A stretch of DNA of 64,000 nucleotides from Bryobacterales bacterium (GCA_963763615.1 CAVXPI010000013.1:718-64717); one strand, 5' to 3'. Counted from the first letter of the stretch, positions 15,136-25,834 are shown. Notes: generated by a model from the sequence alone, not told the origin. Made by a program: numbers and translations.

Positions 15136-16149
15136 ATGAGCGAAATTCACGCGCTGGCGGCCACGGAGGCTTCCGGCAAATTAACTCCATTTTCATACGA
15201 CCCGGGTCCGTTAGGCGATGAACAGGTCGAAATTGAAGTCCAGTATTGCGGCGTCTGTCACTCCGATGAGTCGATGTGGACCAATGAATGGCATATGACC
15301 CGCTATCCATTTGTTCCGGGTCACGAAGCCATTGGCAAAGTCACGCAAGTAGGCGCCGCTGCAAAGTTAGTAAAGGTCGGGCAAACAGTCGGTCTCGGTT
15401 GGTTTTCAGGAAGCTGTATGTATTGCCCGTCGTGTTTGAGCGGCGATCACAACATGTGCTATACGATGGAGCAAACCGTCGTCGGCCGGCATGGAGCGTT
15501 CGCCACACATGTGCGTTGCCATTGGGTTTGGGCCACGCCGCTGCCGGAAGGGATCGATCCCGCCAAAGCAGGTCCGCTCTTTTGCGGCGGAATCACTGTT
15601 TTCAATCCGATTATGCAGTATGACGTGAAGCCAACAGATCGTGTCGCCGTTGTCGGCATCGGCGGCCTAGGCCATTTGGCTCTCCAGTTCCTCAGCAAAT
15701 GGGGTTGCCATGTTACAGCCTTCACAACGTCCGACAACAAAGCGACAGAGGCGAAAAACCTTGGCGCTCACGCCGTCGTCAACACCCGCTCGGCGGCCGA
15801 CCTCAATAAGGTAGCCCGTTCTTTCAATCTGATTCTCTCCACTGTTACGGCGAACCTCGATATGGGCCTCTACTTAAACGCTCTCGCTTTTCGGGGCCGC
15901 TTCCACACGGTGGGGGTCATTCCCGAAATGAAGGTGAACGCGTTCTCGCTGATCGCCGGACAGCGCGAAATCTCGGGCAGTCCTGCGGGCGCGCCCATCA
16001 CCGTTATGAAGATGCTCGATTTCGCTGCTCGCCACGGCGTAGCGCCCATTACCGAGGAGTTTCCCATGAGCCAGGCAAATGAGGCAATGGCGCACTTGGC
16101 GGCAGGCAAAGCTCGATACCGCATCGTTCTGAAGAACGATTTAAACTAG
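15136..16149 (+). CDS. Zn-dependent NAD(P) alcohol dehydrogenase (cinnamyl-ADH/YahK-like).
   Basis: It has GVCHSDES, PGHEAIGKV, the structural-Zn Cys cluster CMYCPSCLSGDHNMC, and the Rossmann motif VVGIGGLGH. Confidence 0.9.
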   Translation: MSEIHALAATEASGKLTPFSYDPGPLGDEQVEIEVQYCGVCHSDESMWTNEWHMTRYPFVPGHEAIGKVTQVGAAAKLVKVGQTVGLGWFSGSCMYCPSCLSGDHNMCYTMEQTVVGRHGAFATHVRCHWVWATPLPEGIDPAKAGPLFCGGITVFNPIMQYDVKPTDRVAVVGIGGLGHLALQFLSKWGCHVTAFTTSDNKATEAKNLGAHAVVNTRSAADLNKVARSFNLILSTVTANLDMGLYLNALAFRGRFHTVGVIPEMKVNAFSLIAGQREISGSPAGAPITVMKMLDFAARHGVAPITEEFPMSQANEAMAHLAAGKARYRIVLKNDLN

Positions 16150-21134: not shown

Positions 21135-23090
21135 TCAAACCGAGAAAAAGTCCCGAATATCCGCTAGTTTCTTAGTAAGCCTGTAAGGAGGCAGGCTGTC
21201 GAAAAAGACCTTGCCATACGGCAGCTTCGTGATCCGGTTATCGAGCAACACCAAAACCCCGCGGTCGGTGGCTCCGCGAATCAGCCGCCCGAAACCCTGT
21301 TTCAATGCCAGCGCCGCTTGCGGCACCTGGTATTCGTAGAACGCATTACCACCCGCCAGGCGAATCGCCTCCGTCCGAGCCGCAATCACCGGATCGCTCG
21401 GCACCGCAAATGGCAACCGGTCGATAATCACGCAACTCAACTGGTCGCCTTGCACATCTATGCCTTGCCAGAAACTCGACGTGCCAAACAACACCGCGCC
21501 CGGCGTATTGCGGAAGTTTTCAAGCAAAGCAGTCCGCGGCGCTTCGCCTTGCATCATCATCGGATAATCGAGCCTGATTTTCAGCATCTCGTATACTTGC
21601 CGCATTTGCTGATAGCTGGTGAACAATACGAATGCCCGCCCATGCGATGCCTCCAGCACTTCAGAAATCACATCCGCCGCGCGCCAGGAAAACTCCGCCT
21701 GCCGCGGATCGGGCAAATGCGGCGGCACGTAAAGAATCACCTGCTTTGTATAGTCGTACGGACTCTCAATCAGCAAAGTCCGCGCGTTCGGCAAGCCTAA
21801 CCGTTTCCGCACATAATCAAACTCACCTGCTACTGTCAAAGTGGCCGAAGTCAGCACCACCGTTTCCAGCCGCTCAAACAGCCGCGACGCCAGCATTTGT
21901 GAAACATCAATGGGCGTCGATTGCAGATACACGCCGCGGCCGCGCGCTTCCACCCAGTAGACCTGCGCCGGGTCCGGCGTCTCCAACCACGTCCGCAAGT
22001 TCTGTTGCAGCAACTTCGCACGGCGCACCAAGGGGAGCGTATCTTCAATCGCGCTCTGCACCAACTCAAGCCGGGCGGCAATGGTTTCCAGAGCTAGCAG
22101 CAGTTCGCTATAAACCGCTTCGTTCAGATGCAGAAACTGCTCGTGGTTGCGAAATCCCTGCCGCCCTTCGCGCGGAAACAACCCAAAAAATTCGTCGCAC
22201 CGGTCGCCCAGTTGGATGAGGCCGCGGTCTAAATCGGGCGTTGCAAATAACTTCCGCCGTGAAATAGCCGCGATGTCTTTCACCAACTCATGCACTTGCA
22301 GATTGCTCACGCTCAGCCCAAAATACTGCCCAGCCACGTCTTCAATCTCATGCGCTTCGTCGAAAATGACGGCTTCATGATCGGGCAAAATCGCTCCGAA
22401 GGTGCGGTCACGCGCCGCCAAATCGGCGAAGTACAAGTGATGATTGACCACCACAATGTCGCTCTCCAGCGCCCTGCGGTGCATTTCGGTAATAAAACAG
22501 CGGTCAAACTGCTGGCACTTCTGTCCGGCGCAATTATCGCTGCGCGCGTCCATCTTCCACCAGGCGCTGCTTCCTTCGGGAAACTCGCTCAGCTCGCTGC
22601 GGTCGCCCGTTTTTGTTTTCTTCTCCCAGTCGCGAATGATTTGGAACTCTTTGCGCTCTTCCAATCCGGTCAGAAGCGGTTCGCGCTCGGCATCATAAAC
22701 CTTCTGCCGGCACAAATAGTTTTGCCGGCCCTTCATGTAACAAGCCCGAATCGGTTTGTCGAACATAGTCTGCAGGAACGCCAGATCTTTGAAGAACAAT
22801 TGCTCTTGCAGCGCCTTGGTACCAGTGGAAATAATCACGCGCTTGCCCGAAAGAATGGAAGGAACCAAATAAGCAAGCGTCTTGCCGGTACCCGTGCCGG
22901 CTTCCACGATCAAGTGCTTGCGATCGGCAAGCGCCTCCGCCACGGCCACCGACATGTCAATTTGCCCAGGCCGGTGTTCGTAGTTTGGGTGCGCTTTTGA
23001 AAGTGCGCCATGCCGCCCGAAGAAGCTTTTCGGCGTCAGCCTCGCGCTAAGGTTGCCACGAGATCGTTCGGTTTGGCTGGTGATGCTCAC
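21135..23090 (-). CDS. dinG: DinG/XPD-like Fe-S DNA helicase.
   Basis: It has Walker A EAGTGTGKT, the DEAH box DEAHEIED, and the Cys cluster C..(CRQK)...NCAGQKCQQFDRC typical of XPD-family Fe-S domains. Confidence 0.88.
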   Translation of the reverse strand: MSITSQTERSRGNLSARLTPKSFFGRHGALSKAHPNYEHRPGQIDMSVAVAEALADRKHLIVEAGTGTGKTLAYLVPSILSGKRVIISTGTKALQEQLFFKDLAFLQTMFDKPIRACYMKGRQNYLCRQKVYDAEREPLLTGLEERKEFQIIRDWEKKTKTGDRSELSEFPEGSSAWWKMDARSDNCAGQKCQQFDRCFITEMHRRALESDIVVVNHHLYFADLAARDRTFGAILPDHEAVIFDEAHEIEDVAGQYFGLSVSNLQVHELVKDIAAISRRKLFATPDLDRGLIQLGDRCDEFFGLFPREGRQGFRNHEQFLHLNEAVYSELLLALETIAARLELVQSAIEDTLPLVRRAKLLQQNLRTWLETPDPAQVYWVEARGRGVYLQSTPIDVSQMLASRLFERLETVVLTSATLTVAGEFDYVRKRLGLPNARTLLIESPYDYTKQVILYVPPHLPDPRQAEFSWRAADVISEVLEASHGRAFVLFTSYQQMRQVYEMLKIRLDYPMMMQGEAPRTALLENFRNTPGAVLFGTSSFWQGIDVQGDQLSCVIIDRLPFAVPSDPVIAARTEAIRLAGGNAFYEYQVPQAALALKQGFGRLIRGATDRGVLVLLDNRITKLPYGKVFFDSLPPYRLTKKLADIRDFFSV

Positions 23091-23157
23091 TTAGGGCGGC
23101 AAGGGTGGAAACTCCCAGTGTAGTATGCGAAACGGAGTGATTGTTCCACCCTCCGTC

Positions 23158-23545
23158 CAATGCGGTGCCCAATGCGGTGCCTGCCACCACAATGCAACAA
23201 TTCCCGTGCCCGAATCCGGTGCCTGCCACCACAATGCAACAATTCCCGGATCAGTTGGCTTCGTTGCGCAAAATAGCCACAGCACGCCCAAAAATGCAGA
23301 ACTCCGCGTCATTTGATGGGGCTTCAACCTTTTTGGGGGCATTCGTGTCCCAATGCGGTGCCTGCCACCACAATGCAACAATTCCCGGACGAGTTGGCTT
23401 CGTTGCGCAAAATAACCATGGCAATCCGGTGCCTGCCACCACAATGCAACAATTCCCGGATCAGTTGGCTTCGTTGCGCAAAATAGCCACAGCACGCCCA
23501 AAAATGCAGAACTCCGCGTCATTTGATGGGGCTTCAACCTTTTTT
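23158..23545. repeat. Compound direct repeats: a perfect 122-bp duplication plus four copies of a 30-mer.
   Basis: 23213-23334 and 23423-23544 are identical by character-by-character reading. GGTGCCTGCCACCACAATGCAACAATTCCC occurs at 23176, 23218, 23357 and 23428. CCAATGCGGTGC is tandem at 23158 and 23170. Confidence 0.9.
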
Positions 23546-23908
23546 GCCCGGATTCATCCGTCCTCCTGACCGCCCCAGAATCACCCGATCCGCATTCGGA
23601 ACCGCGGATAGACACTGTCGGTTACCCCACTTCGCAACGATCTCATCTATTGGTCACAAGCCTCTCAAAATTTCCTTTCTTCCCCTATCGAACTGAAAAA
23701 TCAGCCGCTTGCCCGTTTTGTCTCCTTCACGCTTCGTCGCACGCAACGCCACCCTCAGCTATCCTTTAGTCAGTTCTCGCGGTCGCACCTGCCTGGCGTC
23801 TTCCCGTTTTTCGTGGATCGCGCCCTTCCGCCCAGAATCGGGTTCACCCCAGGTTCGCCCGCCTCCAGGTTCAGTTCTTTCACAATCGAAGACTCACCTT
23901 TCGCCGTT

Positions 23909-24423
23909 GGGTTCGTATTTTAAAAACGAGCCACTCGCTCTGCGGTAGGTCTTTACGGCAAGCGGGTTGGCTTTGTTTTTTCAAAACGCCGGCCCATCAC
24001 AACGGGTTGGGTTCGTTGCGCAAAATGGCTACCTGCCAAAATTAAGTGGTCAGCCTGATGTGGCACCTTTTTCTAAAAGAGGCGGCACATCAGGCTGACC
24101 ACTTTTATCAAGCTCGTAACATCGGGCCAAGTCGCACCGACTAGGTGGGAGTTCGCTCTTTGGGACCGCTACCTTGGCCGGCATATGGCTTCGAAGCGTA
24201 AAAGAGCGAACTCGCGGCGATTTGGCTTCGTTTTTTCAAAAAACGTTCCGCAATAAGCGCTGCCTTCGTGCGCAAAACTAAACGATCGATGGGTTCGTTT
24301 TTTCCACCCAGATCATCGGCCCAGAGTGGCTTCGTAAAAGAGCGAACTCGTGGATATTGGCTTCGTTTTTTCAAAAGCGTTCCGCCGCGCTGGTGGCTTC
24401 GTTGCGCAAAAAACGCTTCGGCG
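23909..24423. repeat. Cluster of short dispersed repeats with a GG[CG]TTCGT core followed by TTGCGCAAAA or TTTTTCAAAA(A)CG. Three more copies lie at 23257, 23396 and 23467.
   Basis: Copies read by eye lie at 23909, 23969, 24009, 24187, 24224, 24261 (variant), 24291, 24328, 24359 and 24395. The sub-motifs TTGCGCAA and CGTTTTTT-C-AAAAAACG are palindromic. Confidence 0.8.
24044..24104. repeat. Perfect 19-bp inverted repeat (hairpin) with a 23-nt loop.
   Basis: AAGTGGTCAGCCTGATGTG (24044-24062) pairs with CACATCAGGCTGACCACTT (24086-24104). It is followed by TT(A)T on the plus strand and preceded by AAAATT, so it could act as a terminator in either direction. It lies about 360 nt from the nearest gene end. 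Confidence 0.85.
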
Positions 24424-24466
24424 AAACGGGTGCGCCTGCACGGTGTTGTTAGGAGTGTAGGCGTCC

Positions 24467-25834
24467 CTAACTCCACAAGCGGTCGTGCGAGTGTTCTTTA
24501 TCCCACTCGGGCGTCGGTTCGAAATAGCCAGGCTCCAGCAGGTGTTGCTTCATGACGTCGTCGTTCAGAGTGACACCCAGGCCCGGGCCTTCGGGCACGG
24601 TGACGAAGCCGTGATTGACGATGGGTTTCTCTACGCCTTCCACTAAGTCGCTCCACCAGGGAACGTCGACGGAGTGGTTCTCCAGCACGAGGAAGTTCTC
24701 GGTTGCCGCCGCGCAGTGCACGTTGGCCATACAGGACACGGGCGAGCCCGCGAAATGCATCGCCATCGGCACGCCGTAAGACTGGATCGCGTCGCCGATT
24801 TTCTTCGTCTCTAAGATACCGCCGGATGTGGCGAGATCGGGGTGCAAGATATCGACGGCATGTTCGGAAGCGAGTTTCAGGAAGCCTTCCTTCAGGTAAA
24901 TGTCTTCGCCGGTGAGCAGGGGAATGTTGACCGCTTGCTTGATTTCTTTCAGAAGGTCCGGGTAATACCAGGGCACCATATCTTCGAGCCACGCGATGTT
25001 ATATTTTTCGAGCGCGCGCCCGAGGCGGATACACGAATTGACGCCGATGTGGCCGAAGTGGTCGCATGAAAGGGGCACTTCGTCGCCCACGTATTCGCGC
25101 ACGGTCGCCACAAAATTCGCCATGGTTTCAATTCCCTTCGGGGTCAGCTCAATGCCGGTGAACATGTGTTCCACGTCCTCCTTGCCAGTAACGCCGACGC
25201 CGAGGGGTGCGGTGATTGTTCCGGGCACGTCTTTCATGAGATCGATGCCGAGGTCCATTTTGAGCCAAGTAAAGCCCTGTTCTTTGCGCTTCTTCAGACG
25301 GGCGCCGTAAATTTTCGGATCGTTGGATTCCGTTGTGTCGGCGTAGCAGCGGATCTTATCGCGAAACTTTCCGCCGAGCATTTGATAAACGGGCACGTTG
25401 TAGGCTTTGCCCGCTAGATCCCAAAGCGCCATTTCGATGCCGCAGACGCCGCCGGCTTGGCGCGATTCGCCGCCGAACTGTTTGATCTTGCGGAAGATCT
25501 TGTCGACGTTGCAGGGATTTTCGCCGAGCAGACGGCTCTTTAACAGCAGCGCGTACGTTTTGCTTGCACCGTCGCGCACTTCGCCAAGCCCGTAGATGCC
25601 TTGATTGGTATCGATGCGGATGATGGGGTCGGTCATCGGCGCGCCTTTGATGGTGGCGATGCGCAGATCCGTGATCTTCAAGTCCGCCGGCTTGGATGCG
25701 CCGTTGACGTAGGCGGTGGAAGCTTCGAGCGTTTTTTCATCCCAGAAGCTAAGACCGAGGGCTCCGGCGGCGGCGCCAAGGAATTTACGGCGGCGAAGAT
25801 GCTTGTTGGAAATCATGAGGGCATTGTATGTCAA
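24467..25834 (-). CDS. Enolase-superfamily enzyme (mandelate racemase/muconate-lactonizing family, sugar-acid dehydratase-like) with a Tat-type signal.
   Basis: It has the RRRKFLGAAAGALG twin-arginine motif, and GIYGLGEV and IEMALWDLAGK typical of the MR/MLE N-domain. It is 455 aa. Confidence 0.8.
   Translation of the reverse strand: MTYNALMISNKHLRRRKFLGAAAGALGLSFWDEKTLEASTAYVNGASKPADLKITDLRIATIKGAPMTDPIIRIDTNQGIYGLGEVRDGASKTYALLLKSRLLGENPCNVDKIFRKIKQFGGESRQAGGVCGIEMALWDLAGKAYNVPVYQMLGGKFRDKIRCYADTTESNDPKIYGARLKKRKEQGFTWLKMDLGIDLMKDVPGTITAPLGVGVTGKEDVEHMFTGIELTPKGIETMANFVATVREYVGDEVPLSCDHFGHIGVNSCIRLGRALEKYNIAWLEDMVPWYYPDLLKEIKQAVNIPLLTGEDIYLKEGFLKLASEHAVDILHPDLATSGGILETKKIGDAIQSYGVPMAMHFAGSPVSCMANVHCAAATENFLVLENHSVDVPWWSDLVEGVEKPIVNHGFVTVPEGPGLGVTLNDDVMKQHLLEPGYFEPTPEWDKEHSHDRLWS

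Follow-up and report, generated by a model that had tools for sequence, protein, structure and literature searches.

In a stretch of 64,000 nt from a Bryobacterales genome (C13:718-64717, hereafter the window; the source genome, G000, is an assembly of 6.9 Mb in 21 contigs with 56% GC), the intergenic region 23091-24466 separates the gene of a DinG-like helicase from that of an enolase-superfamily enzyme (MR_MLE), leaving a gap of 1.4 kb, with the nearest other intergenic gaps in the stretch being of about 245 and 670 nt. The question raised by this locus is what fills such a gap. The original prediction had described it as a repeat-dense region between two minus-strand genes, made of at least four independent repeat systems, and had offered as explanations a long structured UTR, a cluster of small RNAs, decayed mobile DNA, or a protein-binding array. 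Both flanking genes were indeed found on the minus strand, and the repeats were all present, including a 122-nt duplicate, a 39-mer in four copies, a 27-mer in six copies, a palindrome, and other units (Table 1). What did not stand was their independence: they form the modules of a single composite and recur together in a fixed order.

Anatomy of the window copy

Table 1. Coordinates of the features at the dinG-MR_MLE locus, counted from the first nucleotide of the window.
Feature	Position	Strand	Remarks
DinG-like helicase	21135-23090	-	Pfam Helicase_C_2 (1.6e-46), DEAD, DEAD_2; outside the element
Unique segment adjoining dinG	23091-23157		Zero paralogous blastn coverage
Left array	23158-23458	+	Four R1 units interleaved with GTTGGCTTCGTTGCGCAAAAT modules
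R1 units (39-mer)	23168-23206, 23210-23248, 23349-23387, 23420-23458	+	From repeat analysis
Perfect 122-nt duplication	23213-23334 = 23423-23544	+	Family D1, 100% identity
Pre-core segment	23545-23649	+	Common to about 10-12 main-family copies (coverage profile)
Core module	23650-24040	+	About 390 nt to about 0.5 kb; invariant GTCAC at start
Hairpin H1 of core	23795-23824	+	GGCGU-CU-UCC..GGA-UC-GCGCC
Hairpin H2 of core	23835-23872	+	Sequence-variable; ends just before the invariant block
Conserved core block CAGTTCTTTCACAATCGAAGAC	23872-23893	+	Invariant block in all cores, also given as CAGnTCTTTCACAATCGAA
A-tract/hairpin/T-tract of core	23922-23980	+	Strong fold
R2, 61-nt palindrome of two inverted REPs	24044-24104		REP doublet, REPIN-like
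Linker with 13-bp inverted repeat GAGTTCGCTCTTT / AAAGAGCGAACTC	24105-24216	+	Also in other copies
Right array, R3 modules	24186-24420	+	Two units of about 135 nt, families D4-D7
Right-terminal module ..CGGCGAAACGGGTGCGCCTGCACGGTGT..GTTAGGAGTGTAGGCGTCC	24420-24466	+	Same end in 12 copies, which continue past it
MR_MLE enolase-superfamily enzyme	24467-25834	-	Pfam MR_MLE_C (6e-49), MR_MLE_N (3e-11); outside the element

The short segment adjoining dinG was the sole unique DNA within 23091-24466. Its first part, 23091-23129, was kept upstream of dinG in the related genomes G023 and G043 (85-92% identity, in that stretch only), and homology to the relatives stopped at 23129, which marks a synteny breakpoint. 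In the three closest relatives (G023, G043, and G075), dinG was preceded by a gap of only about 55 nt that contained no element; the neighbour of dinG was there a different gene, whose homologue in G000 (C5:166442-166978) had no adjacent repeat. The dinG-MR_MLE order was not conserved among the 13 relatives compared, so the window locus offers no clean comparison between a filled and an empty site. The window element sits at a synteny breakpoint.

Within the left array, each R1 unit consisted of 12-13-nt micro-repeats, CAATSCGGTGCC, followed by TGCCACCACAATGCAACAATTCCCG, and the perfect identity of the 122-nt duplicate points to a recent local duplication inside this array. The window copy also contained the 27-mer GTTGGCTTCGTTGCGCAAAAT.. 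six times, recurring 25/17-mer TGGCTTCGTTTTTTCAAAA units, and a 44-nt pair separated by 136 nt. The core presented three TGGSTTCGT motifs, and a conserved block of the element reads CAGNTCTTTCACAATCGAA. Downstream of the core, the two arms of R2 (24044-24072 and 24076-24104, 29 nt each and 90% complementary) folded with -27.9 kcal/mol (z -10), and the inverted repeat of the linker with -18.5 kcal/mol (z -3.6). Each of the two units of the right array carried three TGGCTTCG motifs with differing tails, and both were homologous to the 3' third of the core (profile matches at model positions 240-365). Finally, position 24466 was the last of the window copy and directly adjoins the MR_MLE stop codon (CTA, 24467-24469), whereas other copies run on from this point with GAACTGAGGGCGCT..GCTTCCGGCTCGGATTCGGA; the window copy is thus cut short and lacks the distal part found in those copies.

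A dispersed family and its turnover

A blastn search of the region against its own genome returned 345 HSPs that grouped into 57 clusters; around 30 clusters measured 0.3-2.8 kb and were strand-consistent, and the element was found at roughly 30-45 places in the genome. Paralogous coverage began sharply near 23158 and ended exactly at 24466. What lies between these limits is a single copy of a mosaic element, dispersed in the genome and strand-consistent. This genome-wide count, which revealed a dispersed family of REP/MITE-like repeats, upheld the mobile-DNA option of the original prediction, in the form of a dispersed repeat. The number of cores detected depended on the method: about 20 copies by blastn, with 68-90% identity, 37 full-length cores by nhmmer, very divergent subfamilies included, and 45 copies by a covariance model. 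Near-full-length copies were found, for example, at C8:120070-119066 (81%) and C7:69545-70579 (83.5%).

Alignment of the ends of 24 copies showed a fixed order of modules, with micro-repeats CAATCCGGTGCC followed by R1 TGCCACCACAATGCAACAATTCCCG, the core, an optional R2 palindrome, tandem R3 units (TGGCTTCG..), and a terminal module in which ...GTTAGGAGTGTAGGCGTCC is continued by GAACTGAGGGCGCT..., a hairpin module on the plus strand that is truncated in the window copy. Two mini-copies, at C19:346283-346418 and C9:130403-130525, had the left and right modules only. The individual modules differed in abundance, with 62 copies of R1 in the genome at up to two mismatches, 24 exact copies of a 15-mer of R2 that included about six doublets, and 171 and 155 copies of the R3 motifs, 80-86% of them at core loci. 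R1 was located upstream of 13 of the 17 main-family cores and was missing from that position in 20 of the 37 cores; the divergent cores were mostly devoid of R1 and R2 but retained R3. In four copies, including that of the window, the R2 doublet lay 13-14 nt past the core end defined by nhmmer, and in three others it was found 28-103 nt past it, a spacing that suggests copying of the composite as one unit. In addition, the left micro-repeat showed a weak 13-nt resemblance to R4, a separate repeat with 69 copies that is not part of the window copy.

Two known types of repeat did not fit these data. Neither TIR nor TSD, the marks of a MITE, was found at the element ends in the 24 aligned copies, and a CRISPR array was not matched either, given that the spacings between repeats were irregular (139, 71, 542, 178, and 208 nt) and that the DNA between them was itself repeated elsewhere.

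The loci of the family were all intergenic, and the genes upstream of the cores were unrelated housekeeping genes. According to crude ORF calls, 12 elements were in convergent, 11 in tandem, and 7 in divergent contexts, which represents only a mild convergent excess, and around 19 of 30 elements were located 1-100 nt after a co-oriented gene. No significant bias with respect to the replication strand was detected among the cores (14 of 37).

Outside the source genome, a blastn search with the core found almost nothing among the relatives, and the homologues that it missed were later caught by the covariance model, which detected the core in 3 of the 60 other genomes of the genus, with 11 copies in G023, 3 in G043, and 3 in G075. 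These are the closest relatives of the source genome, with DinG proteins 85-89% identical versus at most 75% in all others. No core was found in 300 genomes of the order among the best 12 candidates per genome. This confinement to the closest relatives indicates that the core family is clade-specific, in a pattern compatible with vertical inheritance. A GTDB-wide pattern scan yielded one named record, the Bryobacterales MAG PMSX01000224.1, which was a true homologue (E 7e-33), and the element was also present on 25 metagenome contigs. In the relatives, a core of about 330 nt preceded a regular series of 5-6 units, each of 115-118 nt, and in G023 an R1-like REP with micro-repeats preceded the core on its 5' side.

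The turnover of the family was followed at 13 element loci of the relatives, and for 12 of these one or both flanks could be placed on G000. An orthologous copy was present in G000 at 2-3 of these 12 loci (C2:6087, C5:377947, and partly C1:10848), and at least 8 of the 12 had no G000 copy at the orthologous position. At one such site, only about 18 nt separate the orthologous flanking genes in G000, and at another, G000 has a 337-aa ORF (window 15136-16149) where the relative has the element. At these mapped loci, copy positions were mostly not shared between species, and the structured core with its tandem-unit module has undergone amplification and turnover inside a single small clade.

REP modules, the structured core, and competing readings

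Pfam Y1_Tnp gave 12 matches in the genome, about six of them full length, and at nearly every Y1 locus both flanks contained short sequences with 5-30 occurrences in the genome. The window matched two such sets of repeats, one in the left array (R1) and the other in the 61-nt palindrome (R2). R1 was found on both sides of a RAYT-like ORF of G000 (C3:92428-93222), whose protein contains the HUH motif HIHVV and the sequence YVERNPV; its left flank showed four CACAATGCGGTGAC repeats plus TGCCACCACAATGCGAGAATTC, and its right flank ...CATTGTGGTGACTGCCACCATAATGCAACAATTCC. The second RAYT-like ORF (C2:~483900-484620) was flanked by GCGGTCAGCCTGATGTGGGAC and by the inverted GGGACAGATCAGGCTGACCAC, which correspond to both arms of the R2 palindrome. 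Both proteins were above the cut-off for Pfam Y1_Tnp (58.8 and 44.9 bits) and scored 65-66 bits, against a cut-off of 80, with NCBIfam NF047646 (REP-associated tyrosine transposase), the score for IS200 being 21 bits; a search by sequence found no PDB relative. Orthologues of the C3 protein were present in three other species of the genus with 60-61% identity and shared this design of the flanks: micro-repeats of 12-16 nt, specific to each species, directly adjoin a repeat of the GGGACAGTCACC type, whose orientation is inverted on the far side.

For both R1 and R2, a Y1/HUH gene carries the same dispersed repeat on each side, which is the arrangement of flanks in a REPtron, and R1 and R2 are the flanks of two different single-copy RAYT-like Y1/HUH genes. 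The REPIN organization, with two inverted REPs and a short spacer, was found in R2 and not in R1, whose units are direct tandem repeats rather than inverted pairs. R1 formed a weak palindrome with a 4-bp GGTG/CACC core (-3.2 kcal/mol, z 0), and no clear GT[AG]G foot was seen in it, nor a clear GTAG/GTGG foot on the plus strand. With respect to the core, none was located within 2.5 kb of any Y1 gene, on which ground the idea that it represents the end of a RAYT or IS200 element was rejected. Presence of the core was not correlated with that of a close orthologue of the R1-associated RAYT, and an origin in a TnpB/omega-RNA system was discarded too, as the TnpB zinc-ribbon (PF07282) was missing from the genome.

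Taken as a whole, the segment 23158-24466 is probably a clade-specific, non-coding, and modular mosaic of selfish intergenic repeats, similar to BIMEs and NIMEs and driven in part by RAYTs. Under such a scheme, the REP modules would be moved or copied by their RAYTs through single-stranded DNA hairpins, the composite could be copied as a unit, as the spacing of R2 after the core hints, and the arrays would expand and contract through slippage or unequal recombination, of which the 122-nt duplicate may be a product. The modules made of a hairpin and a T/A-tract might have a secondary use as terminators or 3'-end stabilisers of the neighbouring genes. Counting against this mosaic is the fact that no enzyme was linked to the core or to the R3 modules, with no core near a RAYT, R1 missing upstream of over half of the cores, and the R1-associated RAYT not following the core in its distribution. 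The weak palindrome of R1, its direct repetition and its unclear foot, the missing TIR and TSD, and the lack of a replication-strand bias count against it as well, as do terminator-like sites without overall enrichment (2 found versus 2.9 expected), and the conservation of the core in sequence and structure across species could alternatively mean a host function, for instance as an RNA.

The structural data on the core bear on this alternative. All cores kept the 5' GTCAC, H1, H2, the invariant block, and the repeated TGGSTTCGT(T/A)TTTT and TGGSTTCGTTGCGCAAA motifs. H1, which was defined by hand, was 94.9% paired in 26 sequences from its own genome and the MAG, with five of its nine pairs changed on both sides; its covariation score was reached by none of 500 shuffles, and controls slid along the alignment were 34-55% paired. 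Among relatives and metagenomes, 36 distinct sequences gave a pairing of 96.6%, although this alignment was fitted to the model and thus leans toward structure. H2, defined by a stem search in each sequence, presented 26 distinct stems with a mean of 5.5 bp versus 3.7 bp in shuffles and was missing from three short variants; RNAalifold run on an unstructured MAFFT alignment did not recover the variable hairpins. The fold of the core had a z of -2.31 on the plus strand versus +0.23 on the minus strand, the G.U pairs of its hairpins fit the plus strand only, and the A-tract/hairpin/T-tract, a candidate for a bidirectional intrinsic terminator, reached -28.5 kcal/mol (z -3.55) on the plus strand and -20.9 kcal/mol (z -2.1) on the minus strand. 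The two core hairpins are maintained by compensatory changes, and the structure fits the plus strand only.

These data can be read in a different way, in which core and 3' tandem units together represent multi-copy structured ncRNA genes of the plus strand, the core RNA ending at the A-tract/hairpin/U-tract and being followed by arrays of small terminator-bearing units, with the REPs as later insertions into these loci. Such genes would account for the compensatory changes and for G.U pairs on one strand, for a plus strand that folds better than its shuffles when the minus strand does not, and for the strong hairpin followed by a T-run. They would also fit the layout of core plus array and the islands of sequence kept in three other species and in the 25 metagenome contigs, as well as the divergent cores that mostly lack R1 and R2 yet keep R3. 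However, 45 copies with subfamilies and positional turnover in a small clade are typical of selfish repeats and not of a host RNA, the scan for sigma-70-like promoters gave 0 sites in the region, and hairpins of single-stranded DNA would produce an identical covariation and strand signal. Databases pointed in the same direction: the Rfam scan proposed in the original prediction returned no family above threshold for the window copy or for the copies from relatives, with sub-threshold matches to miRNA hairpins by the R2 palindromes of the window copy and eight others (six of them from relatives or the named MAG). Hence, we regard such RNA genes as rather unlikely, bearing in mind that they would be compatible with the mosaic described above. 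A search for tRNA and tmRNA genes found none in the region. Of the options in the original prediction, a role as small RNAs or in protein binding may apply to the core and the tandem units. Doubtful too is the proposal that the core and its 115-135-nt units belong to an undescribed class of multi-copy structured elements of a small acidobacterial clade, which could be either a set of RNA genes, some 45 in each genome, or a mobile element, non-autonomous and based on ssDNA, that travels with RAYT-REP systems without being itself a REP.

The long structured UTR put forward in the original prediction fared worse. A cis-regulatory RNA specific to this locus, either as the 5' UTR of dinG or as the 3' UTR of the enolase-family gene, would suit a region placed between the stop and the start of consecutive minus-strand genes, with a small minus-strand hairpin and T-run about 40 nt past the MR_MLE stop. 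Nevertheless, this hairpin was no better than shuffles (z +0.33), and in the relatives the short gap before dinG, of about 55 nt, lacks the element. Moreover, some 30 unrelated loci carry the composite, in every orientation, which does not support a UTR specific to one of them, and in the window the conserved structure lies antisense to both neighbouring genes. A locus-specific UTR is effectively excluded by these observations, and we consider it very improbable.

Finally, a decayed protein-coding gene in this region, or a coding sequence for small repeat proteins, is hardly conceivable, since the plus-strand ORFs of up to 142 aa, with the three plus frames each open for 60-120 codons, are due to the pyrimidine-rich composition of this strand, no ORF inside 23091-24466 had a Pfam family above the cut-off, and 14 near-full-length paralogous copies of the core showed variable columns without 3-nt periodicity (62/61/67 per codon position) and indels mostly of 1-2 nt. 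The core is non-coding, a coding function is effectively excluded, and the absence of a credible CDS noted in the original prediction was confirmed.

Comparison with known systems

In the mosaic of selfish repeats that we favour, the 1.4-kb gene desert would be explained as ordinary selfish or structural repeat DNA, and neither genes nor a regulator of dinG should be annotated there. The genome would also contain an unusually rich REP-RAYT set outside Proteobacteria, with 12 Y1 loci, most of them with their own multi-copy flanking repeats. The core represents a new conserved and structured family, with 45 copies, covarying hairpins, and no Rfam relative, and it may offer a concrete substrate on which to ask how REP-type elements recruit or carry larger modules and how these could come to be used as terminators or RNAs. 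On the practical side, repeats located at synteny breakpoints are expected to break assemblies and to confound the annotation of related MAGs.

Tandem sRNA arrays, such as NsiR1 in Nostoc and LhrC in Listeria, are single loci with demonstrated transcripts. The element described here resembles them in its head-to-tail units of about 115-135 nt, each with a T-run at its end, which come after a conserved segment resembling a leader, but differs in being present at about 45 loci per genome and in its association with REPs.

A second likeness is found with the BOX elements of Streptococcus pneumoniae and with MITEs, which share with it the succession of an end module, variable internal modules, and the other end, the non-coding, intergenic, and dispersed character, and the existence of short deletion derivatives that retain both ends. 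In contrast to them, neither TIR nor TSD was detected here, no cognate DDE transposase was identified, and the element, of about 1 kb, is far above the typical length of a MITE.

Systems of the REP/REPIN-RAYT type were reportedly the subject of the studies of Nunvar (2010), Bertels & Rainey (2011), and Ton-Hoang (2012). In the picture drawn for REPtrons (PMC6006769; see also PMC3733652 for REP/REPIN-RAYT systems), each REP family has its own gene and a genome contains several families, and atypical REP feet have been described for some Y1 classes (PMC6006769). As in those systems, the repeats described here are short, extragenic, present in tens of copies, and clustered in intergenic DNA, each repeat family flanks one Y1_Tnp gene, several families and genes coexist, and R2 is an inverted doublet able to form a long hairpin, as REPINs are. 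Different from them are R1, which is direct, weakly palindromic, preceded by micro-repeats of 12-14 nt, and devoid of a clear GT[AG]G foot, the RAYT-like proteins, which score below the NCBIfam equivalog cut-off, the unusually high number of Y1_Tnp loci (12, about six of full length), and the largest module, made of the core and R3, which has no RAYT link.

The last comparison is with the BIMEs of Enterobacteria and the NIMEs of Neisseria (dRS3/RS arrays). Unlike these, the element has a structured core of about 390 nt without counterpart among them and a module order that is fixed and strand-consistent instead of alternating. What it shares with both is the organization as mosaic intergenic arrays, in which palindromic repeats alternate with conserved modules, with a variable number of tandem units and a frequent location at the 3' ends of genes.

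Y1_Tnp loci and their bordering repeats

The genome under study (G000, contigs C1–C21) contains 12 Y1_Tnp (RAYT/IS200-like) loci, about six of them of full length (Table), and nearly all are bordered by an inverted multi-copy repeat of their own, such as GGGACAGTACACTCAAACAC, GGGGACAGACGAC, and GGAGGGCGGACTTAAGTCCGCG. This number of parallel REP-RAYT systems is unusually large for one genome.

Table. Positions of the Y1_Tnp loci in G000
Contig	Positions
C3	92428-93222
C2	483904-484620
C20	174181-174831
C5	316830-317231
C18	177966-178259
C18	4783-5088
C21	221623-221862
C8	11933-12127
C1	124552-124800
C2	2910-3107
C7	237815-238009
C20	250357-250524

At orthologous RAYTs from four species (loci L068–L071, from G000, G068, G043, and G005, respectively), species-specific tandem micro-repeats of 12–16 nt were found at the edges, immediately outside the REP-like sequence; the architecture of these flanks is conserved, but not the micro-repeat sequence.

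Core arrays and boundaries of the mosaic element

A divergent subfamily of the structured core of the mosaic element, a dispersed non-coding composite, is present in three head-to-tail copies at C4:53629-56419, repeating about every 640 nt. Each copy carries R1 (REP-type repeats) upstream and R3 (tandem TGGSTTCGT units) downstream, the whole forming a gene-free block of 2.8 kb.

With regard to the copy in the window, an imperfect inverted repeat (GGGTGGAAACTCC ... GGAGTGATTGTTCCACCC, 23103-23151) spans the synteny breakpoint at 23129, where homology to the DNA upstream of dinG in relatives stops. Its 5' arm is kept in these relatives, upstream of dinG, and its 3' arm, located at the very left edge of the repeat block, is found only in G000. 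A small inverted repeat at 24449-24470, composed of GTTAGG (24449-24454) and CCTAAC (24465-24470), spans the join between the truncated end of the element and the MR_MLE stop codon.

In other copies, the right end of the element is adjoined by a separate repeat, GCTTCCGGCTCGGATTCGGA, with 69 copies genome-wide in G000 (two mismatches at most) and frequent inverted pairs (e.g., C7:143670/144289, C9:376748/377014, C17:118259/118388, and C19:430098/430212). It is followed by another module, GTTAGTCGTGGGTCAGAAAATGT, present in 20 copies.

Genes and repeats at sites shared with G023

Between the same orthologous flanking genes, G000 encodes a 337-aa ORF (window 15136-16149), whereas locus L065 of G023, another species, contains a core with an array of six units. 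The site is orthologous in the two genomes, and the difference amounts to a gene-for-repeat replacement. At another G023 locus, L051, a small ORF (2138-2660, about 174 aa) adjoins a REP plus core element, at a site where the flanking genes are only about 18 nt apart in G000. The N-terminus of this G023 ORF, as judged by eye, appears to resemble Uma2/DUF820-type endonucleases; its closest G000 homologue lies at a different place, C2:393546-394064.
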